The notes: generated by a model not told the origin, from the letters alone. Shown: positions 6,132 through 32,094, numbered from the stretch's first letter. The stretch: 33,167 nt of DNA from an uncultured Acidimicrobiales bacterium (GCA_964569385.1 CAZMUM010000046.1:1-33167); one strand, 5' to 3'. Translations and numbers: made by a program.

Positions 6132-6134
6132 GTC

Positions 6135-6476
6135 CTATCCGCCAGCAAACCGCTGCTCGGCTGCAAGTTTCACGAACTCAAGCGCGTCGACCGATTCGGT
6201 GCTCAGCAGATACCCGGGCGAAGATGTGGTTATCGAGTCGGTAGCGATGGTCTTACGAAGCCGACTAATAGCCGTTCGCAAGCCTCCAGGCGACAACGCA
6301 AGAGTTTCCTCGACGAACGCTGACGGCACAATCTGGTTCGCTCTCATTAATAAGATGCTTAGAAGTCGACGCTGGCTGACACTTGGCAGTTCGATCTGCT
6401 GACCATCGGGTGCCCGCACATCGAGAGGACCGAGAATTCGGTAGCTGGGCTCTCCCCGCCGCGCTTCCATGAACAC
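6135..6476 (-). CDS. SARP/OmpR-type winged-helix DNA-binding domain ORF (N-terminal part of the same SARP gene, ending at an in-frame TAG)
   Basis: YRILGPLDVRAPDGQQIELPSVSQRRLLSILLMRANQIVPSAFVEETL…LRTAISRLRK…SPGYLLSTESVDALEFVKLAAE matches the SARP (AfsR-like) DNA-binding domain. It is in the same frame as the downstream BTAD ORF, separated only by TAG (6135-6137) plus one codon. Confidence 0.75.
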   Translation of the reverse strand: MFMEARRGEPSYRILGPLDVRAPDGQQIELPSVSQRRLLSILLMRANQIVPSAFVEETLALSPGGLRTAISRLRKTIATDSITTSSPGYLLSTESVDALEFVKLAAEQRFAGG

Positions 6477-6605
6477 AGGTTACGAACTCAGAGGTGGTCT
6501 CGACACCGAATCTGTTCGGCAACCGAGGTGATGCGGTACTGAAACGCCTCTACGCGAAGGTTGAACCGTGGTGCAGTCCCATGCACCCAGACGAGGGAGC
6601 ATCCA

Positions 6606-6735
6606 GTGAACCGCAGCTGCCAAAACTGCAAAGCCGACATCGCCGCGGAGTCCAAGTTCTGTAGCTCATGTGGAACAGCAGTAGTCGACGCCGCCGCGAC
6701 ACCTTCAGCTTCGGAGGTAGAGACGGCTTGTCACA
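6606..6735 (+). CDS. Zinc-ribbon domain (CxxC…CxxC). Probably the frameshifted N-terminus of the downstream cyclase/AAA/TPR gene.
   Basis: Frame-0 ORF (finder: 6561-6791) encodes …VNRSCQNCKADIAAESKFCSSCGTAV… with a likely GTG start at 6606. The cyclase reading frame (+1) opens at stop 6718-6720 and reads RRLVTVLFSD. The first beta-strand of the cyclase domain therefore lies upstream of the annotated GTG at 6736 and out of frame with the zinc ribbon. Confidence 0.4.
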
Positions 6736-9700
6736 GTGCTGTTCTCCGATGCGTCTGGCTACACCACTATGGCCGAGTCGCTCGATCCTGAGCTCGTTCG
6801 GGAGCTCATGGGTCTCATCTACGCGAAGGCCGACGAGATCGTCTCAAAGTACGGAGGCCGTGTCGACAAGCTGTTGGGCGACGCCGTTCTCGCTGTGTTT
6901 GGCGACCCGGTAGCTCACGAGGACGATGCTGTTCGAGCCGTACGCGCGGCCCTCGAACTACACGAGGCGGTGAAAGAGTTGGCTCCGGTCTTTGAAGAAC
7001 GAGCGGGACATTCGTTCAACATGCATAGCGGCATCAACACCGGTGTGGTCGTGACCAGCGGGCTCGAAAAGGACAGCACGAGCGGCCCGCTTGGCGACAT
7101 GGTCAACGTTGCCGCTCGATTGCAGTCTCTGGCAGGAACCGACGAGATCCTTGTCGGGCCTGACACCACAACACTGCTCGGCAACCAGGTCGAGTTAACC
7201 GACCTCGGCGAGCACGAGCTCAAGGGACGGCGCGAGCCGGTTTCGGTTGCTCGGGTTGAATCTCTAGTGGTTACGACACCAGCGTCGCGTCGGTATGGCG
7301 AGTTTGTCGGCCGGAACGAAGAACTTGGGGTCCTCCTGGGAGCGGTCGAACGACTGAAGGACGGCGACTCCAGCGTTGTTACTGTCTGCGCCGAAGCTGG
7401 AGCTGGAAAGACACGGCTGATCGAGGAACTCAGAAGCCGACTCGGCGATGACGTCAGGTGGCTCGAGGGGCGAGCCTACCCATACTCAGTCGATACTCCG
7501 TACGCATCGGTGATCGACCTATTGAACCGGGTAGCGGGCATCGACGAGAACGACAGTGCCGACGCCGTCAAGTCAAAACTTCGGACCATGATCACCGCTG
7601 TTCTTCCTGGCGACGAGGTCGCAATGGCGGCCATTGGCCAGCTATACGGCCATGTCCAGGAAGAGACTGCGATCGACCTGGAGGCATTTCGCAGTGTTCT
7701 TCTCGATTCCCTAACTCGTCTTCTCGATGTCGTTGGCGACCAAGGACCAACCGTGTTGTGCTTTCAGGATCTTCATTGGGTCGATCCGTCGACTGCGACC
7801 TTGCTGACGGATCTAATCGAGGCTGTGTCTGCGCCCATATTCGCGCTATGTAACTACCGACCAGGGTTCGAACTCGGAGCGTCTGGCGAACGGTCGTTGC
7901 AACTCGGGTTGCTGTCGCCACGTCAAACTGCTGAGTTACTGAAGTCGCTGCTCAACGGCGGAGAGCCACCTGCTGGCCTAACCGACTGGATCTGCACGCG
8001 GACCGACGGCAATCCGTTCTTCATTGAGGAAATCATCAACGATCTACTCGATCGCGCACTCTTGCGGCAATCCGAAGGTAGTTGGGAGCTGACACAGGAT
8101 CTAGACCAGGACACCGTGCCACCGACCATTCAGGGTCTGCTGGCGGCCAGGATTGACGCGCTGGCCCCCGAGAGCAGACGAGTCCTTCGCGAAGCCTCGG
8201 TAGTTGGTCGCGAGTTCCTTCACCGCATCGTGCAATCGGTGACCGACAAACCGACCGACCTCGATGCAAGCCTCGCGGGTCTGTCAGCGGCTGACTTCAT
8301 TCGTGAGAACAACCTCGACCCCGAACTTGAGTACATCTTCAAACATGCACTCACTCAAGAGGTCGCTTATGAAGGCCTCCTGCTCAGAGATCGACAGCTA
8401 CTGCACGAACGTGTTGCGCTCAGCATCGAGAAACATCTTGGCGACCGAATCGAAGAGTTCGTCGAAACCCTCGCCTATCACTATCAGCGCAGCGGCCATA
8501 TCTCCGAAGCTGTCACCTACCTGCGCCGGTCAGCGCAACGGGCACTAGACAGATACGCCATCGAGGAAGCCCACCGCCAATACCAGGCTGCCTACGAGCT
8601 ACTGACGTCGGAGGGCACGGTTGGTGTCGTCATCGATAAAAAGGTGCGTGACCGGCTACTACTCGAAGTGATCATCGAATCTGCGGAGAGCTACTACTAC
8701 AGCGCAAACCTCGGCGAATATCACGATTTGCTGCAGTCGCACCATGACCTGCCCGCCGCGGTAGGCAACGACACCTTGACCGCAAGGTGGATGGGCTGGC
8801 AAGGCATGATTCATTGGTTGCATGAGGTCGAGCACGCCGAGTCAATTGCGCTGCTGGAAGACGCTGTCACGCTCGCGGTTGAGTGCGGCGACGCACAGGC
8901 TGAGGCCTACGCCCTCGCTTGGCTACCTTGGGTGTACTTCACGGCGGGCCGAGCCTCTGAGGCGACTACGTTCTGGCCCAGATTGACCCAACTGCTTCCC
9001 AGTATCACAAGCCCAGCAGTGCGCCAGTACGCTCAAATCAAGGGACTAGGCGGCGCGACAGCAGCTGCAGCTGTGCTTGGCGATGCCACCACGGCACTTG
9101 CGCATGGAGAGGATTTGTTGTCCATAGGCCGTCGCACCGGTAATCGCAGAGCCACCGCAATGGGCCACCAAGCGAGAATCATGAAGGGCTGGGCGCATGG
9201 TGATGTTGAGGCCGCGTTTGCCGCAACTCAAGCAGCGGTCGATGCCAATGCCGATCCGATCTATGCAGAAGCCGCCAACATTTGGGCAACAGCCATCGCC
9301 ATAGCACTCGGTACCGCCGAGCAGGGGCGATCTTGGTACGACGCGACACTGCCGACATCTGGTGGATCTGGTGTCACGGGCGCGTACTACGAGATCATGG
9401 CGTTCCAACTTGACCTGATCGAGGGCCGGCTCAGCCGCGGCTTGCGCGGCTTGAAGGCGCGACGCCAGATCGAGCAAAGTAGAGGCTTCGGATGGGCGGT
9501 CATCCAGATCGACCTGTTCCTCGGGATAGCGCTCGCTCGCGCCGCTACCGGTGAGGTTGAGTCCTCGATATCGAACGCGATACGAAACCCAGCCTTCGTG
9601 ATGCGATACGGGTTCGGCCTAGCCAAGAAAGCGAGGCTGGCACTGGAGGCGGTTCTGTCGAGCGCCGACAATCATGGAAATCGAGCGCTAATCCCGTTGA

Positions 9701-9873
9701 TCGAGAACGAACTAGCCAAGTTGGCGATTCACGACAATCGAACCGATGATGCAGCCGCGCACCTTCGGAATATCTGTCAGAGATTGGCAGACTTTCCCGA
9801 GGCAACGCTGTATTGCGATGCCTCGACGACGCTAGAAGAGCTTGGGATTGGCCCTGCCTCATCGAAGAGTTGA
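6736..9873 (+). CDS. Class III adenylate/guanylate cyclase domain, AAA (STAND-type) ATPase and TPR signal-transduction protein
   Basis: Cyclase motifs (VT)VLFSDASGYTTMAE…KLLGDAVLAVFG…NMHSGINTGVVV…GDMVNVAARL. AAA/STAND P-loop CAEAGAGKTRLIEEL. About 700 aa of TPR-like helical repeats follow. No C-terminal HTH was seen. Confidence 0.8.
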   Translation: MLFSDASGYTTMAESLDPELVRELMGLIYAKADEIVSKYGGRVDKLLGDAVLAVFGDPVAHEDDAVRAVRAALELHEAVKELAPVFEERAGHSFNMHSGINTGVVVTSGLEKDSTSGPLGDMVNVAARLQSLAGTDEILVGPDTTTLLGNQVELTDLGEHELKGRREPVSVARVESLVVTTPASRRYGEFVGRNEELGVLLGAVERLKDGDSSVVTVCAEAGAGKTRLIEELRSRLGDDVRWLEGRAYPYSVDTPYASVIDLLNRVAGIDENDSADAVKSKLRTMITAVLPGDEVAMAAIGQLYGHVQEETAIDLEAFRSVLLDSLTRLLDVVGDQGPTVLCFQDLHWVDPSTATLLTDLIEAVSAPIFALCNYRPGFELGASGERSLQLGLLSPRQTAELLKSLLNGGEPPAGLTDWICTRTDGNPFFIEEIINDLLDRALLRQSEGSWELTQDLDQDTVPPTIQGLLAARIDALAPESRRVLREASVVGREFLHRIVQSVTDKPTDLDASLAGLSAADFIRENNLDPELEYIFKHALTQEVAYEGLLLRDRQLLHERVALSIEKHLGDRIEEFVETLAYHYQRSGHISEAVTYLRRSAQRALDRYAIEEAHRQYQAAYELLTSEGTVGVVIDKKVRDRLLLEVIIESAESYYYSANLGEYHDLLQSHHDLPAAVGNDTLTARWMGWQGMIHWLHEVEHAESIALLEDAVTLAVECGDAQAEAYALAWLPWVYFTAGRASEATTFWPRLTQLLPSITSPAVRQYAQIKGLGGATAAAAVLGDATTALAHGEDLLSIGRRTGNRRATAMGHQARIMKGWAHGDVEAAFAATQAAVDANADPIYAEAANIWATAIAIALGTAEQGRSWYDATLPTSGGSGVTGAYYEIMAFQLDLIEGRLSRGLRGLKARRQIEQSRGFGWAVIQIDLFLGIALARAATGEVESSISNAIRNPAFVMRYGFGLAKKARLALEAVLSSADNHGNRALIPLIENELAKLAIHDNRTDDAAAHLRNICQRLADFPEATLYCDASTTLEELGIGPASSKS

Positions 9874-13000: not shown

Positions 13001-13006
13001 AAGCAA
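12710..13006 (-). pseudogene. Truncated paralogous copy (C-terminal ~97 codons only) of the hypothetical gene at 14293-14832
   Basis: Translation LFHKPNPWSPRSSPGELLDAVPIEEISLQWAD…FFADGRFLPKYTVLG…DEADAILASLGDQAVEVEVPD is ~75% identical to residues 83-179 of the 14293-14832 product. DNA similarity starts abruptly at ~13000, about 30 nt from the MFS stop, with an in-frame TAG immediately upstream of the TTG. Confidence 0.6.
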
Positions 13007-13031
13007 CTACAAGATTGTTCATAGGCGGGTC

Positions 13032-14216
13032 TCAGGGCACATCGAGTGCTCGAGTGGCCAGGACAGCAAGGCCAACTCCAACCAAAGCGGCTGCACCCAA
13101 CACAAACAGGGTTTCGGCGCCGAGACCCGAGATCAACAGAGAGGCTGTTAGCGGCCCTGCGGTCTGACCGGCTCGCATCACAGAAGTGAACACCGACACC
13201 ACCGCGGCTCGGGAGTCCGTATCGGCGGCGCTGCTGACGACTTCTTGCAGCGTGGGGATCAGCATCCCTTCGGCAAACCCATAGACGAGAGAACCCACAA
13301 CAACGACGATCACCGCATCGGCAGTGCCAACAATGGCATAGGCACCCCCAAGAACAATGGCACCAAACCCGACTACGCGACGTGCCCCAAGCCGGGCCCG
13401 GGTACGCGACAACAGAAGCGCGGCAATTGTCGACGACAAGGCCGGGACACCGATAACGAGGCCACGGCTCCGCGCTTCCAAGCCGAAATTGTCTTCGAGC
13501 ATGATGGGAAAGACGGTCAAGAACAGACCGAAGATCATCACGAACACTACGAACGCCATGCCGATTGCAACCTTGACCGATGGCTTAGCGATGACGGTCG
13601 ACGCTTTGGAAATCTGCTGCCGAACCGTCGAGTCCGATGTTGTCGAGTGGCCAGCAAGTTTCCTTGCGACAAGCACCGCAGTCACGAACCCGACCGGAAA
13701 GAGGGCAAAGGACCACCGCCAAGTACCGAAACCGGCCAGCAGACCGCCAAGGGGCGGAAAACCAGCTACGCCAACGGTCAGAACAGCCGAGTTCCACGAG
13801 ATGTAGCGAATCCGGTCCGGGCCTTCCCAGTTATCGGCGATGAGGCTTACAGCCAATCCAATCAAGCTGGCCCCACCTATCCCCTGGAGCGCTCGGGCCG
13901 CGATGAGCGACCACCACGACGGCGCGAACATCGCCAGGGTTCCGCCCAGCGCAAAGGTGGCTAGTGCGGGAACGAGCACCAGTCGTCGCCCATGGCGGTC
14001 GGCCAACACTCCGAACAACGGGGCCAACAAAATGGCTGGTGCCGGACCGGCTGCCACGAATACCCCTGCGTCGCTGTCAGGCCGACCGAAGTGGTCGAGG
14101 ATGTCCGGTATTGAAGGTCCGACCATGGTGTTAGCCATCACTCCAGTGCCGGTGATAGCAAAGATCAGCCACAAGAGTGGACGACGAGTGCTGACTGAAT
14201 CGAGATCGGCTGACAT
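13032..14216 (-). CDS. MFS transporter
   Basis: 394 aa with about 12 hydrophobic segments. MFS-type loop motif GVLADRHGRR between TM2 and TM3. Confidence 0.85.
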   Translation of the reverse strand: MSADLDSVSTRRPLLWLIFAITGTGVMANTMVGPSIPDILDHFGRPDSDAGVFVAAGPAPAILLAPLFGVLADRHGRRLVLVPALATFALGGTLAMFAPSWWSLIAARALQGIGGASLIGLAVSLIADNWEGPDRIRYISWNSAVLTVGVAGFPPLGGLLAGFGTWRWSFALFPVGFVTAVLVARKLAGHSTTSDSTVRQQISKASTVIAKPSVKVAIGMAFVVFVMIFGLFLTVFPIMLEDNFGLEARSRGLVIGVPALSSTIAALLLSRTRARLGARRVVGFGAIVLGGAYAIVGTADAVIVVVVGSLVYGFAEGMLIPTLQEVVSSAADTDSRAAVVSVFTSVMRAGQTAGPLTASLLISGLGAETLFVLGAAALVGVGLAVLATRALDVP

Positions 14217-14585: not shown

Positions 14586-14832
14586 TGAGAGTGAACCACG
14601 TGTCAGCGAGGTCATACCGAAGCCGCGTTTTTAGCTCGGATCCCGGGAGAAACGTATCCAGATAGCGGTACGCATGAGTTCGTCTGTCGGCAGCATCGTG
14701 TGCTCGCGCCATTGAGGCGACACCACCAGACGCTGGGCCGATTGATGAGGTGAGGGCAACTGTCGCCTCGATCTGCTCATTTGGCCGGAGCGAACCCGTC
14801 AGCTTCTTTCGCATCTTGTCGTTCGTCTTCAT
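14293..14832 (-). CDS. Hypothetical protein (possibly bacterial PH-domain-like)
   Basis: 179-aa ORF, the full-length parent of the fragment at 12710-13006. The N-terminus MKTNDKMRKKLTGSLRPNEQIEATVAL weakly resembles bPH-type proteins. No catalytic motifs. Confidence 0.55.
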   Translation of the reverse strand: MKTNDKMRKKLTGSLRPNEQIEATVALTSSIGPASGGVASMARAHDAADRRTHAYRYLDTFLPGSELKTRLRYDLADTWFTLTDQRAMFHKPKSWSPRPSQAELLDAVPIEEISMQWADHKESGLRFRLMVIFFADDRFLLQYTVLGPALGKKKKSHDEADAILGLLGDRAVEVEVPDA

Positions 14833-14917
14833 TTACGGCAGCTTAGGGTCAGCTACGCGTTGCGGAGAAGTGGGATCGATGAACCGGGTGTCCCAACCCA
14901 GTGAAAGACTCTGCCCT

Positions 14918-15511
14918 ATGTCGTCACCACTGCTCATTCTTGCATCGTCGTCACCGCGACGCCGCGCTCTGCTTGCCGACCTCACCACCGAGTTCATCGC
15001 AACCGACATCGACGAGACTCCACGGCCGCACGAAGAGCCAGCAACCTACGTTGAACGTCTGGCGCTGGCTAAGGCCGCGACGGCCGTGGTCACGTGCTCA
15101 TCGGAGTCGGCCATCATCGCCGCCGATACCTGCGTGGCTCTCGACCAACTGATCCTCGGAAAACCATCGTCGAAGGCCCAAGCCGCTCAGATGCTGAGGG
15201 CTCTGTCTGGTCGTGACCACGACGTGTTCACCGGTGTGGCTGTCATCAACACCGATAGAGCAACGAGAAGCTGCGTGGTTCACACGGTCGTGACGTTCAG
15301 CGACCTGTCCCAGGCCGACATCGCCTGGTACGTCGCTACCGGCGAACCAATGGACAAGGCCGGGGCCTATGGCATCCAGGGCAAAGGCGGAGTGTTCGTC
15401 GAGCGCATCAGCGGGTCGGCTAGCAACGTTGTTGGCTTGCCCATGGTCGAAACAATGCGACTGATAACCAGCGCCGGCCTCGACGTAACGACGCTACGAT
15501 CCCAGTCATGA
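14918..15511 (+). CDS. maf: Maf-like nucleoside triphosphate pyrophosphatase (septum formation protein Maf)
   Basis: LILASSSPRRRALL…DIDET…AKA…GADTCVALDQLILGKP…GYGIQGKGGVFVERISGS matches the Maf family signature. Start chosen at ATG 14918. The finder ORF begins at 14750, but the upstream 56 aa are non-homologous. Confidence 0.85.
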   Translation: MSSPLLILASSSPRRRALLADLTTEFIATDIDETPRPHEEPATYVERLALAKAATAVVTCSSESAIIAADTCVALDQLILGKPSSKAQAAQMLRALSGRDHDVFTGVAVINTDRATRSCVVHTVVTFSDLSQADIAWYVATGEPMDKAGAYGIQGKGGVFVERISGSASNVVGLPMVETMRLITSAGLDVTTLRSQS

Positions 15512-16704
15512 CGGCATCAGACCAAGTCGTTTTGGCACCTCGCAGCGAGATCAACGCCGAAGTGAAGCCAGCCCATGCGGGAGAGTTCCCAGCTCCATCG
15601 ATAGGACCCATCGAACTCAGCACCCCAGTGATCTTGGCTCCTATGGCCGGGGTCACTGATGTTCCGTTCAGGGCACTTTGCCGCCAGTTTGGTGCCGGGT
15701 TGTATGTGAACCAGATGATCACGGCGCGAGCCCTCATCGAGAATAACGCCGCCACTTGGAAAATGGCCCAGTTCGGCCCAGACGAGTCGCCTCGAAGCAT
15801 CCAGCTGTACGGCGTCGAAGAGCACAGCATTGGCGAGGCAGTCAGGCGTCTGGTCGACCAAGGCCAGGTCGATCACATCGACATGAACTTTGGCTGCCCC
15901 GTCGCAAAAGTAACTCGCCTCGGAGGCGGCTCAGCGCTTCCTGTGAAACGGCGGCTACTCGACAAGATGATTCGTGCTGCGGTAACGGCTGCTGAGGACA
16001 TCCCGGTAACGGTGAAGTTCCGTAAGGGCATCAACGACGACCATCTCACGTTTCTCGATACTGGACGCATCGCCGAAGAGGCTGGTTGTGCTGCCGTCGC
16101 GCTCCATGGACGCACGGCATATGAGCTTTACAGCGGCCACGCCGACTGGGATTCCATTGGGCAGCTGAAGGCCCACGTGTCCAGCATTCCGGTGTTTGGC
16201 AACGGCGATATTTGGGAATCATGGGATGCTCTTCGGATGATGCGCCACACAGGCTGCGACGGGGTGGTGATTGGCCGAGGTTGCCTTGGCCGACCATGGC
16301 TATTTGGGGAGCTGGCCGCCGTGTTCGCAGGCGAACAGCCCCCGTTGCCACCCGACTTAGCCGCAGTAGGCGAGACCATGATCGACCACGCCGAGCGCCT
16401 CATCGCTTGGCACAATGACCCGACCGCGATTCGCCAGTTCCGCAAACACGCGATCTGGTACGTCACCGGGTTCCCTGTTGGTGGCGCTAGGCGGGCGCGG
16501 CTGGCTTCAATCGAATCAGTAACGGACCTCATCGATGCGGTAGCCGACTTTCCCGAAGCCGACTTTCCCGAGACTGCCCTCAGAACCAAACGCAGCCACA
16601 CGGGCGGTCCAAAACGTGTCGCTCTTCCCGATGGCTGGCTCGACGACATCGACGACACCACACCGCTTCCCGCCGATGCCGGAGCCTTCAACTCCGGTGG
16701 CTGA
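15508..16704 (+). CDS. dus: tRNA-dihydrouridine synthase
   Basis: LAPMAGVTDVPFRALCRQFGAGLYVNQMI…DMNFGCPVAKV…ALHGRTAYELYSGHADWDSI…GNGDI are Dus family motifs. ATGA overlap with the maf stop. Confidence 0.9.
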   Translation: MTASDQVVLAPRSEINAEVKPAHAGEFPAPSIGPIELSTPVILAPMAGVTDVPFRALCRQFGAGLYVNQMITARALIENNAATWKMAQFGPDESPRSIQLYGVEEHSIGEAVRRLVDQGQVDHIDMNFGCPVAKVTRLGGGSALPVKRRLLDKMIRAAVTAAEDIPVTVKFRKGINDDHLTFLDTGRIAEEAGCAAVALHGRTAYELYSGHADWDSIGQLKAHVSSIPVFGNGDIWESWDALRMMRHTGCDGVVIGRGCLGRPWLFGELAAVFAGEQPPLPPDLAAVGETMIDHAERLIAWHNDPTAIRQFRKHAIWYVTGFPVGGARRARLASIESVTDLIDAVADFPEADFPETALRTKRSHTGGPKRVALPDGWLDDIDDTTPLPADAGAFNSGG

Positions 16705-16719
16705 CTTCGCCGATCTACG

Positions 16720-19128
16720 ATGCCAACCATGACATCGGTCAAAGACCCAAGGCCACGACCCACGCGGCAGCCATCCGATGTCTCGCTGTGTGTCGTGTCC
16801 GACAACACAATGCAAGCCTTCGCAACAGCGCTGCGCGACGCCGACCGAGCCGCTATCGACACCGAAACGGTTTACATCGAACCAGGCCCCGGCGCATTGC
16901 GGGTGGTCTCGGCTGCAACTCGGGCCCCCGACGGGACCGAGCAGGCCTGGGTTGTTGATGTCACTCTTGTCGACCGCCTCGATCTCGCCAAGGCTCTTTC
17001 GGGGGTGAAAGCCGATGCCTGGAACGCCGACTTCGACGCCAGGGTCATCGAACGCGACCTCATCGAACCAGCGCGGCTGGCCGGACTCGACGTCGAGCCA
17101 GTCGTGTGGTGGGACGCTCAGCTCGCCGACGCTCTCCTGCACCAGGGCGTTACTGGGTTCGGGTTTTATCACGGGCTCGCCTGGGCCGCTGAGTGGTACT
17201 TAGGTATCCGGGCCGAGGGTAAAGGCACCACCCAACTGTCCTACACCGAGAGCGATCCACTAACCGAAGAACAACTTCGCTACGCCGGCGCCGATGCGAT
17301 CGAGACGCTGTGGGTAGCCGATGTCATCTCGACTCAGATCGACGAATTGGGACTCAATCGGGTGTGCACGCTCGAGCAACTGGCCAGGCCGTTTCTCGAC
17401 CAGATGGAACGGGCCGGTCTGCCATTCGACTGGGATGGCTGGCACGATCAACTTCACGAGATCGAAAAGCTCCGGGTGGCCACACTCACCCGCCTGGCCG
17501 AACTAACTGGGGGCGGACAGGGCTCGCTGTTTTCGGCCGAGCTCGAACCCTCGTGGAACCCAGGCAGCGAGAGCCAAACAAAACAGATGCTCAACGAGTT
17601 CTCACTCGACGAGGTTCTACGCTGGACTGAGGCCTACATGGGCGATCGCCGACCGCTCGAACCCATCGATCCGCTGCGGGCCGACACTCTGGCCGAAATT
17701 GGCGGCGAGCTGTGCACCACCCTGCTCGAGTACCGCGAGCACACCAAGATTCTCACGACATACGGCGAGAACCTCCAAGACCATGTCGGCGACGACGGCC
17801 GAATCCACCCCGAGTACCTTCAGGTAGTGGGTACCAACACCGGCCGCCTGGCCTCACGTAACCCCAACGCCCAGAACCTCTCTCCACGCATGAAGCCGCA
17901 CTTCAAACCAGCCGACGACGAGAAGGTATTCGTCTATTCCGACCTCAGCCAGGCCGAGCTTCGGTTCGTGGCCCAACTATCGGGCGATGAGGCTCTGTGT
18001 CAGGCCTTTGCCGACGGAGTGGACGTACACGCGGCAACCGCAGAGCGCATGTTTGGCATCGACATGACCGCACTTGGCAATGACGACCCTAAGAGTTACG
18101 AGGAGTACCGGGCCAAGTCGAAGCGAATCAACTTCGGCATCGTCTACGGACAACGCGGTGGCGGTCTGGCGCGCAGCCTCTCGCAGTCGGGTGTTCCTAC
18201 TACTCCAGACGAAGGACGCAACCTGCTTGAGGCCTACCTGGCTGCCTACCCAGGCGTGGCCCAATGGTGCGACGATCGCGACCGCATTATCGACCGACTT
18301 GCGACCGATCCTGGCCCGATGGACTGGATTGCAACACTGCGGCTCCATCAACTCCTCCCGACCATCACCGCCAGTCGCCGGGCGTTTCGGGCCGAGAATC
18401 GTCGGTGGCCTTCGGTCGAGGAGGTTCAAGAACAGTTCGATCACTTAACTCTCGACGAGGTTGCTTGGGCGATGTCTTTCCACGCCCCAGTAGCGCTTCG
18501 AGCCGATGGCAAACCCTTCGCGTTCGATAGCTTCACGAAAGCTGGTCGCCGCCAAAGGTTCACTATCCACACCGAGGGGATCCTGGCTAGGGGCGCGGCA
18601 ACCATCATCGCCTCGCACAAACCGAGTCCGGCCCAAATTCGAGTGCGTCTCAACGACAGATTCAACGTCAAGCTGGGTGCCACTCCACCAGACTCCTCCG
18701 ATTCTGGCATTACGAAAATGCTCGAAGATCGTGCTCTGCGGCGGGCCGTGATCGATGAGGTCGCCGATCTGATGGGTGCCGATGCTCTAAGCCGTCTACT
18801 TGATACCTCGCTCCGAGAACGGGTCGCCCGTATGGCCAACGCCTACCGGAATGCGCCGGTGCAGGGCGGAGTCGCCGACGTCATGCTCGACGCATACGGG
18901 CTTCTGCACACACGACTGGCCCAGTTCCCCGACGCTGTTGGCGTTCAGACTGTTCACGACAGCGTGGTTGTCGAGTGCTCTAGAGCCACCGCTAAGGAAG
19001 TCGCAATCGTGGTCAAGGGTGCCCTCGAAGACGCCATGCGAGCCTGGTGTCCCGACGTTGCGGCTGTTGCTGACACCGATGTGAGGTCGTCACTATCGGA
19101 CAGTGACGTCGAGTTCAGCCTTCCATAG
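16720..19128 (+). CDS. Family-A (PolA-like) DNA polymerase with an N-terminal 3'-5' proofreading exonuclease domain and no 5'-nuclease domain. It carries a large insertion between motifs B and C.
   Basis: Exo motifs: AIDTET (Exo I), WNADFDARV (Exo II), YAGADAIETLWV (Exo III). Polymerase motif A is VYSDLSQAELRFVAQLSGDE and motif B is YRAKSKRINFGIVYG. Then YPGVAQWCDD, then ~170 extra residues before MANAYRNAPVQGGVADVM. Motif C is VHDSVVVE (HDS in place of the usual HDE). Confidence 0.85.
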   Translation: MPTMTSVKDPRPRPTRQPSDVSLCVVSDNTMQAFATALRDADRAAIDTETVYIEPGPGALRVVSAATRAPDGTEQAWVVDVTLVDRLDLAKALSGVKADAWNADFDARVIERDLIEPARLAGLDVEPVVWWDAQLADALLHQGVTGFGFYHGLAWAAEWYLGIRAEGKGTTQLSYTESDPLTEEQLRYAGADAIETLWVADVISTQIDELGLNRVCTLEQLARPFLDQMERAGLPFDWDGWHDQLHEIEKLRVATLTRLAELTGGGQGSLFSAELEPSWNPGSESQTKQMLNEFSLDEVLRWTEAYMGDRRPLEPIDPLRADTLAEIGGELCTTLLEYREHTKILTTYGENLQDHVGDDGRIHPEYLQVVGTNTGRLASRNPNAQNLSPRMKPHFKPADDEKVFVYSDLSQAELRFVAQLSGDEALCQAFADGVDVHAATAERMFGIDMTALGNDDPKSYEEYRAKSKRINFGIVYGQRGGGLARSLSQSGVPTTPDEGRNLLEAYLAAYPGVAQWCDDRDRIIDRLATDPGPMDWIATLRLHQLLPTITASRRAFRAENRRWPSVEEVQEQFDHLTLDEVAWAMSFHAPVALRADGKPFAFDSFTKAGRRQRFTIHTEGILARGAATIIASHKPSPAQIRVRLNDRFNVKLGATPPDSSDSGITKMLEDRALRRAVIDEVADLMGADALSRLLDTSLRERVARMANAYRNAPVQGGVADVMLDAYGLLHTRLAQFPDAVGVQTVHDSVVVECSRATAKEVAIVVKGALEDAMRAWCPDVAAVADTDVRSSLSDSDVEFSLP

Positions 19129-19170: not shown

Positions 19171-19866
19171 GTGGGCGATCTAACGAGACGAGTCCGCGAC
19201 AGCGCGACCGCAACCAATCACTCTGAGGCTGTCCTATCGCCACGCGCCGCAGCTAAGGCCGAACGCGAGGAACGGGGTCGCGCGTCTCGTCAGCACAGGT
19301 CCGATACACAAGAAGCAGTCCGTATCGAAACTGCCCGACGCACCCAATTGGCCCACATCGTCAACACCTTCAGGGCTTCGGCTCGACATGGCGACGATGT
19401 CGGCACCACCGGATTCTCAAGGCTGAAGACGTTCAAGAAACATCGCCTACGTCTTGGCCGTCGTCCACGTGGTTGGGTTGTTGGTGCTGGCACCGTTCCG
19501 CTCCAGTTTCCCGACGGAGTCCGCCAGTTGGAAGCCCAGCTAATTTTGGGCGCCGATGGTCGGCTGTACGCATCGATCGATGGCGTGATTGGAGCTCGAT
19601 ATCAGGTCGGCCAAGCCGTAGCGCCGACGACGCCGTGGATGCTGAGCGTTCAAGTGTGGCGTTTGGTCGAAGACACCATCCCCGAAACGGTTGGTGCATT
19701 GGTGGGTTACCTAAGCCTCACTTGGCCCGCCGAACGCGAAGCCCAAGCGCAGGCGGGGGCAGCCGAAGCAATAGGGCCAACGCAGGCGGGGGCAGCCGAA
19801 GCAATAGGACCAACGCAGGCGGGGGCAGCCGAAGCAATAGGACCAACGCAGACCCAACTGGGCTGA
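19171..19866 (+). CDS. Hypothetical protein with C-terminal tandem peptide repeats (QAGAAEAIGPT x3)
   Basis: 231-aa ORF co-directional and tightly spaced with its neighbours. The repeat is encoded by the 33-bp tandem DNA repeat at 19741-19850. Confidence 0.5.
   Translation: MGDLTRRVRDSATATNHSEAVLSPRAAAKAEREERGRASRQHRSDTQEAVRIETARRTQLAHIVNTFRASARHGDDVGTTGFSRLKTFKKHRLRLGRRPRGWVVGAGTVPLQFPDGVRQLEAQLILGADGRLYASIDGVIGARYQVGQAVAPTTPWMLSVQVWRLVEDTIPETVGALVGYLSLTWPAEREAQAQAGAAEAIGPTQAGAAEAIGPTQAGAAEAIGPTQTQLG
19741..19850 (+). repeat. 33-bp perfect or near-perfect tandem repeat, about 3.3 copies (caggcgggggcagccgaagcaataggRccaacg)
   Basis: Read directly. Copies 2 and 3 are identical and copy 1 differs by one base (g/a). 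Confidence 0.85.
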
Positions 19867-24557: not shown

Positions 24558-27500
24558 TCAGTCGGATCCGATTACAGGAATCGCAGCATTGCCCATGGCG
24601 TCGGCGATTCGGTCGAGAGCGTCGACCACCCCAGCCGCAGGGTCGGCGACCTTGGTCGACCAACGTTTGGTTATGGCACTCCACCGCTTCAACTCGTCTT
24701 CGGCCAGTGTGCCCCGTAAAAAACCCAAAGCCAGAAGGTTCTGCTCGGCGCGATCGGTAAGAGTTTGGGCCTCAGATTGATAGTGATCCTCGACTAGCTG
24801 GTCGAGTTCGTCGTCGGTCATCGCCGGCACCACACTCGAGGCAATACGGGCCATGTTGCGGTAGGAGCCCTGAAGGAGAAATGGCGGTGCATCACGGTCG
24901 GTTTCGGCCGTGGCCGCCGATCGAACGTAGGCATCGTTTACGGCCATGACAGTGTCTTGAGCCCGATCTAGAAGGCCGATCAGTCGAACGGTTTCGGACA
25001 GTTGTGGGCCGTCCCAACGGTGTTCAAGGCCGTCGGTACTAGCGGGCCTGGTGCCTTTGGCCATGCCGAGCACTGCTTCGATGTCGTCGATCAACCGGCC
25101 AGCCGAACCAGCCAGAGCCGGGCAAGCGGTCAGGCTGTTCTCCAGATACGAAAGCGCAAAGTCTTGATCGTGTTCGTCGGCGACATCACCGAGATTGTGT
25201 ACGTCGGCGCGGTTGACCAACATGTCGGGGAGATCGAACCTGCTTCCACCAGACGAATACGGGTTACCGGCCATCACCACGGCAAGACGTTTGCCGCGGA
25301 GGTCGAAGGTAATGGCATCGCCGTCGGCTACGCCTTCGATTCGGCGAGTTGCATCGGCGAGTGGAATGAATCGAGACAAGAACTCCGCAGAGGTGAACTG
25401 CACGTCGTCGATGAACAACATGACGTTGCGACCGAACCGAAGAGCGAGATTGACCTTCTCGACCTCGGCCCGCGCGGCCGCGTTTGGCGCCGCGGCGGGA
25501 TCGAGCGATGTGGTGTCGGTTCCGAGAGCAGGACCATTGACCTTCACCATCAGCATGCCAAGCCGGTCGGCCAGCCAGGCCATGAGCGTTGTCTTGCCAT
25601 ACCCAGGCGGAGATGTCAGTACAAGAAGTCCGCTTCGGCTCAGGTCGGTGGCATCGACGGTGCCGATCTGGCGCGAGAGGTTGGCCCCAACCAACGGCAA
25701 CAGGGCGCGGTCGATGAGCCGATTCCGAACGAACCCAGCCATCACCTGAGGCCGGTGCGAGTCGAGGTCAACCTCGACACTGGCCTGGCTAACAACGGCG
25801 CGCCTTGCCGCCTGATATTGCGGCCACCGAGTCTGCATATCCTCGAACAAGCCGCCGACCCGCTGCGCCATCTCGTCGAATCGGAGGCGCATCTCGCCAC
25901 CGTCGATGCGACGATGTTCACTGACCAAACCGTCGACGTTGAACGCGCCGGCATGGGGTACTTCGCGCTGTCCAACATCGGGAGCCGCCAGCAACGCGGC
26001 CGCCTCGGCAACATCGAACTCAAACTCGGCCAGATTGGAGTCGTTGGCTACGACACCACCGACCCAGTCTTGGGCGGTGGCGAACCTCGAAACAACGTCA
26101 GGTGTCGAGCTAAGAGCCGAGTTCAACTCCTCGAACCCTTCCTTGCCAAGAACATCTTTGATACGAACCAGCAGCTCGGTAGCAGTGGACGGGACAGCGA
26201 GATCGAGCCCACGTACACCAAGATCGTCAGCCAGGTAGCCGGTTACGCCACGACGAGCCCGCGCGTCGAGGTGCGCCAGGACGCCAGCCAAATGTTGGTC
26301 GATCTCGGAGCGGACCCTCTTGATCCCATCAGCGACTCCGACTCGGTCGCGTGCCGATCTAGCCGCGCGAGCCCGTGTGGCGTGAGCAACAACTGCGGCC
26401 GAGTCGATCGATGCCACAAATATACGGCCGAGTGCGCGACTCATCCCCGCGTGTCCGAGGACCGGTTCGTCATTGCCCTGAGCGGTTAACGCGGCCAGAA
26501 GCCTGGTCGCGTCGTGGTCGTGTACGCCAACTTCGTAACCTTCACCGTGTCTGCGCTCGGTAACCGCCCGCACCAGGGCCGCCAGCTTTTCTGGTACCGC
26601 CGCAGCGGTGGACAGTTCGACCCGGCGGTCACCGTCGCCGCGGAGAACAGCCCAAGCTAAGTACTCGGCTCGGCTGACATCGTCGGTCTCTGACGGATAG
26701 GGCCGCGACATTAGATCTGCGAAGTCGCTCAGCTCGGCCGACACGTCCTGGCGATAGTCAGTACCGGTAACAGTCACGTCGACGCCACCCGAAGTCGGTG
26801 ACAGCACAATTTCGAATGGTTGTTCGTTGGGCGCGAAATTGAACCCTCCAAACGCGAGCGAGCCGTCTTCGGCTACAAGATCGGTTCGGTCACGAACCCG
26901 CCGCCGAGCTTCTTCGGCCGCCGCGTTCAACTCTGTACGGACTTCCGACGCTTGACCGACCTCGCCCAACTCTTGTAGTTCGTCGGCCAGGCTCCGCACC
27001 CTCGCCACCATCTGGTCGGCAGCAAAGAAACTGGCGATCTCGGCTTCGTCGGCCGCCTCTCCAGCGCGCTTGACCACGGTTCCAAGCAGACGACGCGCCG
27101 CCTCAACCAGCCGTTGGGTACGGCGGGCTCGCTGGTCGACCAACTCAGAGCGGCGCGCCCCGAACGTCTCGTTCAGGCGGTCTCGAAGTTCGACCATTCG
27201 ATCGATTCGGTCGGGTTCTTCGCCGTAGCGACTGTCGATCCGTTCGAGGTTTACGAGCAAACGCCCTAGCTCGGCATCGCATTCGTCTGGGTTCGTAGTG
27301 CCGACTACCGCAGCAGACATCGACTGCTCCAGCAGCGCGACCTCGGCGTCGAAGGCTTCGTCTGACTCCGAGGACCGCAACTCGCGTACACGGCCGTCGA
27401 GCTGGGCTCTCGCTCGGTTGGTACTAGCAGTGATGTCGGCGATGCGGCGAACAATTCGCGTCCGTGCGGTTGGGTCTCCGGCATCTAGGGCCGACACTGC

Positions 27501-29441
27501 ATCCACCACCGCCTCTAGGTCGCCGGTTACCGCCAGAACCTGTTCCATGATGTGGTTCACATCGAGCGCTGTGGCGCCCGCCAAACCCTCGACTACTAAC
27601 GACTCAAGACGTGTCTCGAAATCGGCGAAGGCCCGATCGTCGTCGAGAACCTCAGCGGCTCTTTCGGCCAGCCCGCTGATGGCATCGTCGAGATCAGAAG
27701 TCAGTTGAGCAACAGCTGTGTCGTCGATCTCGGGCACATCGTTGAGTAGCGACGCTTGTCCTCTGGCCCGACGAAGTAGCCCAAGAGCCTCGACCACATC
27801 GGTGGCCGAGGAGGCCCGGCTGGCCTCGTCGACTGTCCGGCGCGAGTCGCGTTCGGCAGCTTCGAGACGGGCTGCGGCTTCAGCTCGCAGCCGCCGAACT
27901 TTGGCGTACTCGTCGACCAACAGGCCGGCCGTGCTCACGATGTCGCGCAAGCCGCCGCGTAGATCTTCGGCCTCGGGGTCGGCCATCCACAAGTGGGTAT
28001 CCAGTGCGCGCCTCGCGGCAACGATTATGGCTTCCCAAGTGCGCTCGGAGGGGTCGACATCGTCGGCCAGCTGGCCTACGTCGTAGGCGTCTCCCAATCC
28101 AGCTACAAGATCAGCGTTGCCAACTCGATCAACCCAAGTGTCGCCGGTCGAGGTCTCGCTGTCGGCGAACTCGGCATCGACAAACGGTGTGTCCCACCAT
28201 TGGATGGGGTGAACGCGTGACAGCTCGGCATCGTCGGGACCACCTCTGAACAGCATCATTTGGCCGTCGGCAAACATTGCGAATCCGTGGCATGGGATGA
28301 GCTGTGAGATCTCGCGTCGCACCAGGTTGTATGGAGCTAATAAGTACTCGCCACTGTCGCGGTGATGAAAGACGTAGAGCAGGTCTTCACCGTTTGGTGC
28401 CGCGACAACTTCTTCGAACACCATTCCGTCGCTCGAAACGTCGAACAATCGCGTCCCGGTGGTAGCCAGGTGATATCCACCGGGGAAAACCACACCATCA
28501 CCACCAGGCAGAACGCGCGCCGCATCACCGAGAGCGTCGACCCTGGTTCCGCTGCGGGTACGACGACCGAATAAGTAAAAGCGAGGTGGCTCGGAATAGA
28601 GCTCGACGCTGATAGCCAGCTCTTCTCCGAACTCGGCGTAGGAAACCCCGACGTCGGCCAACGACTGACCAGGTACCTCGACCGGTTCGTCGGTTTCGAC
28701 TCGTCCGCCCGGCGTGCCATCTTCGATGCGTAACTGAAGACGACCGCCGCGGAACCCGACGAACACTTCGTCAAGCACCGACACTGTCGGGTGGGTGCCG
28801 GGACGCTGATCTTCGCGGGTGCTTCGCACCCAAGTCATGTCGTGAGAATCTGGCCACGTGTAGTCGCGGTCGCCTCTGGCATCGACGAACGATACTGTCC
28901 CGTCGATCGCTACGGTCCAGCGAAGAACTACAAGGTCATCGACTCGTTCGCCGATCCGGAATGCCGCTAGCAGTTGGTTAGCACCGCGACGCAGGTCGGA
29001 GAATCGGGCTTTGCCATAAAAGCGGTGGAGTTTGTCGAACTCTTCGCGGAATGCCGGCTCGGCTAGGAAATTCCGCTCATCGTCGGCACCAATCGGAGCA
29101 AGCTCGTCATCGGCGCCACGTTCGTACAACCCAAAGACATGTTCGGGCGTCAGCTGAGCCAGCTCTGGAGAGACCCGATAGCCGAGCATCAGCAGGTCGC
29201 CGACACGAACTACGTCTCGAGGCCTGCACGCGAGGTCCGTGCGAAGCCTGTCTGATCCGGCCAGCCGCAACTGCGTGCTGCCAAACGATTCGGTTCGTAG
29301 ACGGTCGAGCGATGTCGCGGCCTCAACCGTGTCGCGGACGCGGCCGCGCAATCGGCGCCTCAGCAGGTCGTAGTTGCCACCTGCTGGGCTGCCGGTGTCA
29401 GCGCTCGTCTGACCCGCGGAGGCGTCGCCGGTATCGGTCAT
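24558..29441 (-). CDS. Giant (1627 aa) protein with one AAA+ ATPase module near the C-terminus and ~1250 aa of unassigned N-terminal sequence. Last gene of the NfeD-flotillin operon.
   Basis: Walker A LVLTSPPGYGKTTLMAWL (~25585-25614). Walker B NVMLFIDDVQ. Sensor-1-like VVMAGNPYS. Sensor-2/Arg-like LLQGSYRNMARIA. The start sits 9 nt after the flotillin stop. From memory only, the overall look matches large proteins annotated as 'ATPase involved in DNA repair' (DUF3686+AAA). This is unverified. Confidence 0.8.
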   Translation of the reverse strand: MTDTGDASAGQTSADTGSPAGGNYDLLRRRLRGRVRDTVEAATSLDRLRTESFGSTQLRLAGSDRLRTDLACRPRDVVRVGDLLMLGYRVSPELAQLTPEHVFGLYERGADDELAPIGADDERNFLAEPAFREEFDKLHRFYGKARFSDLRRGANQLLAAFRIGERVDDLVVLRWTVAIDGTVSFVDARGDRDYTWPDSHDMTWVRSTREDQRPGTHPTVSVLDEVFVGFRGGRLQLRIEDGTPGGRVETDEPVEVPGQSLADVGVSYAEFGEELAISVELYSEPPRFYLFGRRTRSGTRVDALGDAARVLPGGDGVVFPGGYHLATTGTRLFDVSSDGMVFEEVVAAPNGEDLLYVFHHRDSGEYLLAPYNLVRREISQLIPCHGFAMFADGQMMLFRGGPDDAELSRVHPIQWWDTPFVDAEFADSETSTGDTWVDRVGNADLVAGLGDAYDVGQLADDVDPSERTWEAIIVAARRALDTHLWMADPEAEDLRGGLRDIVSTAGLLVDEYAKVRRLRAEAAARLEAAERDSRRTVDEASRASSATDVVEALGLLRRARGQASLLNDVPEIDDTAVAQLTSDLDDAISGLAERAAEVLDDDRAFADFETRLESLVVEGLAGATALDVNHIMEQVLAVTGDLEAVVDAVSALDAGDPTARTRIVRRIADITASTNRARAQLDGRVRELRSSESDEAFDAEVALLEQSMSAAVVGTTNPDECDAELGRLLVNLERIDSRYGEEPDRIDRMVELRDRLNETFGARRSELVDQRARRTQRLVEAARRLLGTVVKRAGEAADEAEIASFFAADQMVARVRSLADELQELGEVGQASEVRTELNAAAEEARRRVRDRTDLVAEDGSLAFGGFNFAPNEQPFEIVLSPTSGGVDVTVTGTDYRQDVSAELSDFADLMSRPYPSETDDVSRAEYLAWAVLRGDGDRRVELSTAAAVPEKLAALVRAVTERRHGEGYEVGVHDHDATRLLAALTAQGNDEPVLGHAGMSRALGRIFVASIDSAAVVAHATRARAARSARDRVGVADGIKRVRSEIDQHLAGVLAHLDARARRGVTGYLADDLGVRGLDLAVPSTATELLVRIKDVLGKEGFEELNSALSSTPDVVSRFATAQDWVGGVVANDSNLAEFEFDVAEAAALLAAPDVGQREVPHAGAFNVDGLVSEHRRIDGGEMRLRFDEMAQRVGGLFEDMQTRWPQYQAARRAVVSQASVEVDLDSHRPQVMAGFVRNRLIDRALLPLVGANLSRQIGTVDATDLSRSGLLVLTSPPGYGKTTLMAWLADRLGMLMVKVNGPALGTDTTSLDPAAAPNAAARAEVEKVNLALRFGRNVMLFIDDVQFTSAEFLSRFIPLADATRRIEGVADGDAITFDLRGKRLAVVMAGNPYSSGGSRFDLPDMLVNRADVHNLGDVADEHDQDFALSYLENSLTACPALAGSAGRLIDDIEAVLGMAKGTRPASTDGLEHRWDGPQLSETVRLIGLLDRAQDTVMAVNDAYVRSAATAETDRDAPPFLLQGSYRNMARIASSVVPAMTDDELDQLVEDHYQSEAQTLTDRAEQNLLALGFLRGTLAEDELKRWSAITKRWSTKVADPAAGVVDALDRIADAMGNAAIPVIGSD

Positions 29442-29449
29442 TGATTGGC

Positions 29450-31471: not shown

Positions 31472-31473
31472 TG

Positions 31474-32094
31474 TCAGTTGTCTCCCTTATTGCCGAACAG
31501 TTGGTCATCATTCGTCACGCCGTAAGTGGCAGAGTCGGAATTCCATGACATAAGTCGAATTGTGTCGCCTGGGCCAAGCCCAAGTGCGTTGCCGTCGCGC
31601 ACGTCGATGCGCGACATCGAGCCGTCGTCCCAGATGGCGTCGGCGTAGCCAAAGCCTGCATCTACCCGACCTGAGCGCACCGTGGCCTCTCGGCCAACTA
31701 ACTCCATCGCACTAGGGGCGGTTGCAGTCTCCATTAGGCGCCCGAGAGGTCGGGCCAGCCTTGAGCCGAGAAACAATGCAGTAGCAAGGGCCATCACGAA
31801 CACAGCCGCCGATGCGGCCACAAGGGTCATCCCGCCAAGCGGGTCGAGAAAGAACAGCGCCGCCACCACGGCCAGGAACCAAGCAATTAGCGAGACGATC
31901 GAGAACACAACCAATGGCGGAACTCCACCAAGGCCAAGCGACGCCACTGCGTCCTCGCCGAAGCCGTCGCCTATGTCGCCGCCAATATCGAGGATGCCGA
32001 TCATCGAAACCAGCCACAGAACCAGGCTGACCCCAAGTGGTATGAAGAAGATGATCGCGACTGGAGTGGTCGCCGCATCCCAGAATTCAGCCAT
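31474..32094 (-). CDS. NfeD-like (YqiJ/YuaF-type) membrane protein, first gene of the flotillin operon
   Basis: Three or four N-terminal TM helices. C-terminal soluble beta-rich (OB-like) segment GREATVRSGRVDAGFGYADAIWDDGSMSRIDVRDGNALGLGPGDTIRLMS. It lies directly upstream of the flotillin gene, and its stop is 3 nt from the flotillin start. Confidence 0.75.
   Translation of the reverse strand: MAEFWDAATTPVAIIFFIPLGVSLVLWLVSMIGILDIGGDIGDGFGEDAVASLGLGGVPPLVVFSIVSLIAWFLAVVAALFFLDPLGGMTLVAASAAVFVMALATALFLGSRLARPLGRLMETATAPSAMELVGREATVRSGRVDAGFGYADAIWDDGSMSRIDVRDGNALGLGPGDTIRLMSWNSDSATYGVTNDDQLFGNKGDN

Follow-up and report, generated by a model that had tools for sequence, protein, structure and literature searches.

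Family-A DNA polymerases belong to the best-studied of all enzymes and serve as workhorses of biotechnology; the triad of their active site and the Klenow fold are regarded as nearly invariant. These PolA proteins were divided into 19 clusters by Czernecki et al. (2023; PMC10201439), and a 2026 survey groups the bacterial enzymes as PolA1, PolA1-like, PolA2, and PolA3, with PolA1 present in about 96% of bacteria (PMC12926913). In the latter survey, about half of the PolA1 enzymes lack the DEDDy proofreading residues, a loss that is commonest in a few phyla including Actinobacteria; all PolA2 proteins are exonuclease-dead; and a PolA1-like enzyme together with a solo flap endonuclease (FEN) can replace DNA polymerase I (Pol I) in some species. 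Each of the three Acidimicrobiia covered has a single PolA1-core protein, and of the three only Ilumatobacter also has a PolA2 (PMC12926913). Here we describe a PolA-like gene at positions 16,720–19,128 of a 33,167-nucleotide stretch of DNA from an uncultured Acidimicrobiales bacterium (GCA_964569385.1, CAZMUM010000046.1:1-33167; "the window" hereafter means this whole stretch). The encoded protein, referred to as the window polymerase, is very probably an active, conserved, proofreading relative of Pol I, as judged from its sequence, and we consider it reasonably probable that it is a catalytically competent family-A DNA polymerase of a distinct clade, with a proposed accessory role in gap filling. 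This clade, here called the HDS-insertion clade, is defined by HDS at motif C, a two-part, partly sigma-3-like module, intact proofreading, the lack of a FEN domain, and a small insert that resembles a clamp-binding motif. We found no published account of it, including in the two PolA surveys (PMC10201439, PMC12926913), and it is best described as a variant within the known PolA family.

The window polymerase is encoded by a complete open reading frame (ORF) of 802 amino acids on the plus strand, identified by Pfam and homologue searches. Its start may be the second ATG (Met4, position 16,729), because a 97%-identical ortholog (P0001) is annotated as a protein of 799 amino acids, three residues shorter; no obvious Shine-Dalgarno sequence precedes either ATG (16,720–16,731). 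Pfam assigns DNA_pol_A_exo1 (PF01612, residues 28–207) and DNA_pol_A (PF00476, 174.4 bits vs. a gathering cut-off of 34.3) to the protein and nothing further. The 5'–3' exonuclease domain families PF02739 and PF01367 gave no Pfam match in it, and since the protein starts just 27 residues ahead of the proofreading exonuclease domain, it lacks a 5' nuclease. We placed the motifs in three ways, by phmmer against PDB sequences, by BLASTP against Escherichia coli Pol I, and by a global hhalign profile–profile alignment of 65 family members with a profile of 14 canonical PolAs (probability 100%, E 1e-84), and verified the nucleotide coordinates of all motifs by translation. The proofreading domain (residues 28–207; 16,801–17,340, plus strand, as are all other parts of the gene) retains the full DEDDy set of D47, E49, D106, Y188, and D192, distributed over Exo I (AIDTET, D47/E49), Exo II (WNADFD, D106), and Exo III (YAGAD, Y188/D192). 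In the polymerase domain, motif A (DLSQAELR, 17,941–17,964) contains the catalytic aspartate D408 and the steric-gate glutamate E413, which correspond to Klenow D705 and E710, respectively. Motif B, the O-helix, reads RAKSKRINFGIVYG (18,109–18,150) and contains R464, K468, F472, and Y476, and helix Q starts with RNAPVQG (18,847–18,867), in which N711 and Q715 are the minor-groove sensors equivalent to Klenow N845 and Q849.

Motif C deviates from this canonical pattern. Instead of the H-D-E of family A, the window polymerase has H746-D747-S748 within VHDS (18,952–18,963), so that the catalytic aspartate is kept and a serine occupies the place of the usual glutamate. As VHDS (residues 745–748) aligns opposite VHDE of the Klenow fragment (880–883), S748 is equivalent to Klenow E883, and no HDE occurs anywhere else in the C-terminal part of the protein. 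The original prediction, made from the DNA alone, had described a family-A polymerase with exonuclease and polymerase domains but no 5' nuclease, with intact Exo motifs and motifs A and B and with VHDS instead of VHDE; Pfam and the alignments agree with each of these points, and all three methods recovered every motif in the same place. Because the steric-gate E413 and F472 are retained, the window polymerase should use deoxynucleoside triphosphates and thus make DNA and not RNA.

The AlphaFold2 model, calculated on the family alignment, has a predicted local distance difference test score (pLDDT) of 90.1 and a predicted TM-score (pTM) of 0.88. Its best Foldseek matches are the Aquifex, Bst, Klenow, and apicoplast PolA structures, with a probability of 1.00 to Pol I structures, E values of about 1e-24, and TM-scores normalised to the target of 0.74–0.80. 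The predicted fold is Klenow-like, comprising exonuclease, thumb, palm, and fingers without a 5' nuclease. With the Klenow fragment and PolA1 (cluster 1 of Czernecki et al.), the window polymerase shares the fold, the DEDDy exonuclease, motif A with the steric-gate glutamate, phenylalanine at position B3, the TGR motif, the asparagine and glutamine of helix Q, and the histidine and aspartate of motif C. It differs from them in lacking FEN, in the serine of motif C, in two insertions (~155 residues), and in a 12-residue Gly-QxxLF insert. Orthology to Pol I itself is contradicted by the missing FEN, by scores below the cut-offs of the NCBIfam models NF004397 and TIGR00593 (184.3 vs. 720 and 159.2 vs. 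600), and by the spacing from motif B to motif C (271 vs. about 116 residues). PolA1-like enzymes and CHEAPs likewise combine exonuclease and polymerase without FEN and have intact proofreading, but CHEAPs are mainly proteobacterial, with leucine at B3 and a bent thumb, and neither group, compared here by description only, is described with a palm insertion or HDS. The T7-type RNA polymerases also have HDS at motif C, and the window polymerase differs from these by its steric-gate glutamate, the phenylalanine at B3, the proofreading exonuclease, and the lack of an N-terminal RNA polymerase domain. Scores for the NCBIfam models of the phage DpoZ and phage PolA clades remained below their cut-offs (67 vs. 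500 and 38 vs. 350). A defence-associated PolA (PADLOC RTasPolA/DRT) was also considered and rejected, as the match scores 49 bits and extends over no more than the generic parts of palm and fingers, and the neighbours are maf, dus, and gluQ.

The features of the window polymerase recur in a large group of proteins. A search of 5.8 billion protein clusters yielded 737 relatives, the best 120 of which share 51–97% identity with it, are about 800–850 amino acids long, and all contain VHDS (120/120). These 120 are named only as proteins of metagenome-assembled genomes (MAGs) of Acidimicrobiia, Acidimicrobiales, Microthrixaceae, or Ca. Poriferisodalis, and are annotated as "DNA polymerase" or "hypothetical protein". 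In a 65-sequence alignment of this family, the DEDDy set, D408, E413, R464, K468, F472, Y476, N711, Q715, H746, D747, and S748 are invariant. An exhaustive search of 1.84 billion representatives with a profile built from the insertion module gave 86 clusters at 50% identity. The module was found only inside PolA-like proteins; full-length matches have the size of a PolA and carry the module in the same relative place, nearly all have the N-terminal DTET and VHDS[IV], and most have D[LY]SQAELR as motif A. The wider clade defined in this way comprises 65 full-length representatives with less than 50% mutual identity. D408, E413, R464, K468, F472, Y476, N711, Q715, H746, and D747 are each present in 65/65 of them and Ser748 in 64/65, and HDS is always accompanied by the insertion. 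Among the exonuclease residues, D47 and E49 are conserved in 64/65 and Y188 and D192 in 65/65 representatives, and position 106 is aspartate in 50 and glutamate in 15. Variants also occur, including a 1090-amino-acid member (P0126) fused to a C-terminal GNAT acetyltransferase and a rare long subclade (P0154, P0176, P0195, and P0200; 1054–1167 amino acids) with an extra insert of ~150–200 residues right behind the [Q/E]xxLF motif.

The comparison with the 97%-identical ortholog (dS = 0.37) gave a ratio of nonsynonymous to synonymous substitution rates (dN/dS) of 0.045 for the whole gene, 0.032 for the polymerase core, 0.043 for the first insertion (ins1), 0.157 for the second (ins2), and 0.011 for the C-terminal palm with motif C. 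Purifying selection acts on the two active sites as well as on the two insertions, and such a pattern of substitution and invariance would be expected if the enzyme is active. With serine fixed in place of the motif C glutamate, this large natural clade amounts to a natural experiment on the third acidic residue of the family-A active site.

Between the motif B tyrosine and the motif C aspartate, the window polymerase has 271 residues and 116 family members have 270–335, compared to 114–116 in 14/14 ordinary PolAs, which corresponds to a net gain of ~155 residues. This length is spread over two insertions around a conserved element of the palm. The first, ins1 (residues ~526–596; 18,295–18,507), is a three-helix unit resembling region 3 of sigma-70. 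It is followed by the palm beta-hairpin GKPFAFDSFTKAGRRQRFT (residues 597–615; 18,508–18,564; AlphaFold2 strands 601–605 and 611–615), which hhalign equates with Klenow VETLDGRRLYLP, and then by ins2 (residues ~616–699; 18,565–18,816), a five-helix unit modelled by AlphaFold2 as packing with ins1 into one extra domain. The near-invariant T606-K-A-G-R-R-Q-R-F614 between the insertions pairs in the hhalign alignment with Klenow T817-L-D-G820-R-R-L-Y-L, and T606, R610, R611, and F614 of the hairpin are conserved in at least 92% of the wider clade. In the model, the equivalent of helix P (511–529) precedes the ins1 helices (536–560, 566–570, and 578–585) and the hairpin, and the ins2 helices (618–631, 635–648, 661–667, 671–685, and 687–704) lead to helix Q (706–735). 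As residues 530–705 fold on their own with a pLDDT of 94.9 and a pTM of 0.88, ins1, hairpin, and ins2 are predicted to form one compact domain. The model places this 170-residue helical module at the junction of fingers and palm, just ahead of the helix that reads the minor groove and outside the thumb. The original prediction had suggested a single insertion of ~170 amino acids between motifs B and C; a large insertion there is confirmed as genuine by the Klenow alignment, which also puts it at the fingers–palm junction and not in the thumb, but it consists of two insertions around the palm hairpin, with the net gain given above.

The likeness of ins1 to sigma factors was detected by two methods. 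Pfam Sigma70_r3 (PF04539) matches four of 22 module sequences, with a best E value of 2e-6, and the copy in the window falls below detection. In one of the matching proteins (P0005), residues 542–587 align with positions 3–48 of the 78-position profile at 25.8 bits, just over the cut-off of 25.3, and matches were also obtained in two divergent subclades (P0137 and P0208). With hhalign, residues 547–573 of ins1 align with residues 461–487 of E. coli RpoD (region 3.0) in the comparison with RpoD and RpoS (E 4.3e-5, probability 69%), and the same comparison revealed no sigma similarity of ins2. These matches suggest that ins1 is related to sigma-factor region 3, although it covers only ~48 of the 78 profile positions and is part of a polymerase palm instead of a sigma factor. 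A structure search of BFVD with the module gave no match. The module is the sole basic part of the protein, with an isoelectric point of 9.8 vs. 4.9 for the whole, but ins1 alone is mildly acidic; an added contact to nucleic acid or to a partner is thus suggested with moderate confidence only. Ordered, lineage-specific insertions on the Klenow fold are likewise known as the T7 TBD, the Pol gamma AID, the phiKMV thumb insert, and the inserts of Pol theta and Pol nu, but these are located in the thumb or elsewhere in the palm, unlike in the HDS-insertion clade, and none is described as sigma-3-like or as flanking a GRRxY/F hairpin. In T7-type RNA polymerases, too, a large element for DNA recognition that is specific to the lineage separates motif B from motif C. 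The sigma-like helical domain of the HDS-insertion clade would be a new example of domain grafting onto a polymerase core.

A further, smaller insert was missed in the original prediction. Residues 264–275 (GGGQGSLFSAEL; 17,509–17,544), which lie opposite a gap in the hhalign alignment to canonical PolA, consist of a Gly-rich linker followed by QxxLF (GGGQGSLF) and have no counterpart in canonical Pol I. G264, G265, G266, Q267, L270, and F271 are invariant in the 65-sequence family alignment, and a Gly-rich linker with [Q/E]xxLF is present in 51/65 representatives of the wider clade, in forms such as QGSLF, QGNLF, QADLF, ELTLF, and QEDLF. The motif fits the consensus for binding to the bacterial beta sliding clamp. 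QxxLF has also been reported in PolA2 (PMC12926913), where it lies in a loop of the vestigial exonuclease; in the window polymerase, QGSLF (residues 267–271) follows the exonuclease domain.

The surroundings of divergent clade members, which share 32–44% identity with the window polymerase, repeatedly include genes for replication and repair. A Toprim (Toprim_2) or DnaG-like primase gene occurs near the polymerase at six of the eight divergent loci examined (L082–L086 and L173), and a stand-alone FEN at two of them (L086 and L173). Other neighbours at divergent loci are HIRAN genes (L082, L083, and L085), an SNF2 helicase, and, at L083 and L085, weak Sigma70_r2-like proteins. The most complete set is found at L173 (ENA ERZ26694896 ctg117617_13.98x_c, positions 19–21084 of a circular sequence of 601,688 bp), where the NAD-dependent ligase LigA, a FEN, a DnaG-like primase, an HD protein, and a helicase-like AAA_25 ATPase are encoded within 10 kb of a 931-amino-acid member (P0138), amid many small ORFs without a Pfam match. 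This 0.6-Mb replicon may represent a very small genome, a megaplasmid, or a very large phage, and related divergent members are found on 810-kb contigs (P0224; L090). At another divergent locus (L082, 2616–9282; contig GC content 42%), the 1167-amino-acid P0200 lies two genes upstream of a TraG/TrwB-type type IV secretion coupling protein. Judged by their annotations, neighbours of the L173 type appear to constitute a gene set for Okazaki-fragment maturation in which the two activities of Pol I are encoded separately, and the association of divergent members with primase, FEN, and ligase genes suggests a gap-filling role in such a split system.

Taken together, we favour the reading that the window polymerase is a competent, proofreading member of the HDS-insertion clade in which Ser748 would be a variant that defines the clade and is tolerated without disabling the enzyme. 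The extra domain may add a nucleic-acid or partner contact beside helix Q and the region handling the template or downstream strand, and the Gly-rich linker with QGSLF may tether the polymerase to the beta sliding clamp. The enzyme could fill gaps accurately during repair, the maturation of Okazaki fragments, or both, and its partners would be a ligase and a 5' flap nuclease encoded by a gene of its own. In the host Acidimicrobiia genome it would most likely be accessory to a canonical Pol I, and since proofreading by Pol I is commonly lost in Actinobacteria, a PolA with proofreading would have a distinct niche. The clade is a candidate source of a PolA with high fidelity and possibly processivity, in a phylum in which Pol I is often without proofreading. 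Several observations weigh against parts of this proposal. The replication-gene neighbourhoods belong to the divergent relatives only, and the neighbours of the Acidimicrobiia family itself are unrelated metabolic genes. No LexA box with up to one mismatch was found upstream of the polymerase. Because ins1 on its own is mildly acidic (mean family net charge −3.3), DNA binding by this half of the module is not obvious. The glutamine of QxxLF is kept in just 33/65 clade representatives, and its leucine and phenylalanine could be mere structural core; as AlphaFold2 models residues 264–275 as an ordered hairpin (pLDDT about 85), clamp binding by QGSLF is a candidate property, not a finding.

The strongest competing explanation is that canonical polA has been lost and that the polymerase, together with a stand-alone FEN, performs all functions of Pol I. 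Such replacement of Pol I by a PolA1-like enzyme with a solo FEN has a precedent, solo 5'–3' exonucleases exist in the class, and no surveyed PolA1-bearing member of the Acidimicrobiia appears to carry the family, the counts comprising PolA1-core proteins and one exonuclease-dead PolA2 (PMC12926913). As these family-A counts leave no room for it, the survey appears not to have sampled the HDS-insertion clade at all. The strong conservation and wide distribution of the family are also in its favour, as are the solo FEN and primase genes at the divergent loci L086 and L173 and the ligase gene at the latter. However, no FEN was found by tblastn in the window and 19 Acidimicrobiia loci with 10-kb flanks, and the Pfam-annotated genes of the locus most similar to the window (L175) do not include a FEN. 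A canonical PolA was likewise not found by tblastn in the window and the 19 loci. The near-ubiquity of PolA1 in bacteria, including all three surveyed Acidimicrobiia, leads us to rate an accessory role in the window's genome above that of a sole PolA: on these priors, the former is likely, and the latter a possibility of clearly lower probability. A more far-reaching proposal is that the clade forms a separate functional class of clamp-tethered, proofreading PolAs, in which the sigma-3-like module provides a recognition of DNA or a partner that other PolAs lack, such as that of gaps or downstream duplex or the docking to another machine, and which has replaced the polymerase half of Pol I in many uncultured Acidimicrobiia and in the 0.6–0.8-Mb replicons with divergent members, with the flap nuclease encoded separately. 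We regard this as rather unlikely, but if the clade does replace Pol I in some lineages, this would bear on Okazaki-fragment maturation in abundant marine, soil, and sponge-associated Actinomycetota.

The assumption of a competent enzyme, common to the accessory role and to the replacement of Pol I, was weighed against loss of activity. Mutants of Klenow E883 have a lowered kcat. The original prediction, which noted a contribution of E883 to catalysis, had considered a reduced-activity or specialised polymerase. Klenow E883 and Bst E831 are listed among the residues partaking in catalysis (PMC10520511), and loss of the equivalent residue could in principle leave a weakened or non-catalytic polymerase that acts as an exonuclease or scaffold. 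We consider this very unlikely. The serine is fixed in 64/65 representatives of the wider clade and is not variable, as it would be after a loss of function; all other active-site and substrate-contacting residues are invariant across these sequences of less than 50% identity (the ten catalytic residues in 65/65), and dN/dS is lowest in the C-terminal palm. With purifying selection at both active sites, these patterns speak strongly against reduced activity, and "specialised polymerase" stands as a reasonable description. Furthermore, the metals in family-A ternary complexes are ligated by the two aspartates, not by the glutamate equivalent to E883, and the T7-type single-subunit RNA polymerases, which are fully active enzymes, naturally have (I/V)HDS as their motif C. 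A literature search gave nothing usable on quantitative effects of E883, nor on Poriferisodalis.

A second alternative to the favoured proofreading enzyme would be membership in the actinobacterial APEX/PolA2 group, that is, a low-fidelity, clamp-using polymerase for repair or translesion synthesis. The window polymerase and APEX 1/2 have in common an actinobacterial host, the lack of FEN, a chromosomal location without prophage character, a possible beta-clamp motif, and the NCBIfam equivalog PRK14975 ("bifunctional 3'-5' exonuclease/DNA polymerase") as the nearest model. The latter matches with only 223.8 bits, far under its cut-off of 640, and its profile ends ~116 positions past motif B. 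In APEX 1 and 2, the DxE motif is lost, the exonuclease pocket is sealed, and leucine occupies B3, and APEX 2 also has AGR for TGR (PMC10201439). In contrast, the window polymerase retains DTET, TGR, and phenylalanine at B3 (Phe472, 65/65) and thus fails the tests for APEX; DTET is invariant in its family. APEX proteins also have no counterpart of the palm insertion, and their clamp motif is placed elsewhere. This assignment is therefore still less probable than a loss of activity. The PolA2 of Ilumatobacter, by comparison, is presumably a true APEX, since all PolA2 are stated to be exonuclease-dead (PMC12926913).

The family of the window polymerase is chromosomal in uncultured Acidimicrobiia. 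Among the matches listed in a scan of species-representative genomes, full-length members are found only in Acidimicrobiia MAGs, and the class contains hundreds of clusters at 90% identity, compared to 86 clusters at 50% identity overall. The gene order in the window, maf, dus, polymerase, orf231, gluQ, 5-formyltetrahydrofolate cyclo-ligase, and surE, all co-oriented, agrees with the housekeeping surroundings (maf, dus, gluQ, and surE) originally noted for the gene. Synteny of maf, dus, gluQ, and surE is restricted to close relatives (L175, 97% identity; L006, 78%; L002, 62%). In the more distant members from Acidimicrobiia, the gene has other, metabolic neighbours on the chromosome, and the family as a whole has no conserved neighbour; in two of these members, cinA and pgsA are located within a few kb, and in one of the two (L089) recA is found there as well. 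In searches of mobile-element collections, tblastn with the C-terminal half gave no match in PLSDB and INPHARED, the full protein matched PLSDB entries at no more than 33% identity, and the relatives in IMG/VR reached at most about 38% identity with the family and about 36% with the wider clade, mostly over the core only. As nothing close was found in these collections, an origin from a phage or plasmid is not supported. That the window polymerase is the replicase of a mobile element, phage, or plasmid in the window is the least probable explanation and close to negligible, as the coupling protein and the primase-like, helicase-like, and Pfam-less ORFs near some divergent members are outweighed in the window by a flat GC content across the gene (0.58–0.63), by the synteny in three relatives, and by the lack of integrase or att-like features noted near the polymerase.

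Upstream of the polymerase, dus (tRNA dihydrouridine synthase; 15,508–16,704, plus strand) ends 15 nucleotides before the polymerase gene. The listed reading frame of maf (14,750–15,511, plus strand) overlaps dus by 4 nucleotides, and the two are probably co-transcribed. No terminator-like or promoter-like site was found between dus and the polymerase in a scan that was itself uninformative. Downstream, orf231 (231 amino acids; 19,171–19,866, plus strand) begins 42 nucleotides past the polymerase stop and is kept in all three syntenic relatives (L002, L006, and L175); it has no family match in Pfam or PADLOC. Its 3' end contains a 33-bp tandem repeat in 3.3 copies (19,743–19,851), which encodes AGAAEAIGPTQ three times. 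The ORF of gluQ from 19,473 is over-extended, with the real start near 19,872.

Several gene groups elsewhere in the window are of separate interest. A minus-strand cluster of three genes (24,558–32,094) encodes a 1627-amino-acid protein with DUF3686 ("ATPase involved in DNA repair") and DUF7902 after ORFs of 673 and 206 amino acids; the latter two have no Pfam or PADLOC family match, and L006 shows synteny for the DUF3686 gene. Genes with a signalling or defence-like character are located at 3210–9873 and 32,222–33,148, including a 973-amino-acid protein with BTAD and STAND NTPase domains, a 1045-amino-acid protein with a nucleotide cyclase and AAA_16 that has weak PycC-like PADLOC matches, and an AAA_14/DUF4143 ATPase matching the PADLOC candidate system PDC-S01 (E 4e-67). 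Finally, the AT skew shows two strong local spikes, one of +0.32 at 13,001–14,000 over an MFS transporter gene and one of −0.31 at 30,001–31,000 over the 673-amino-acid ORF of the minus-strand cluster.

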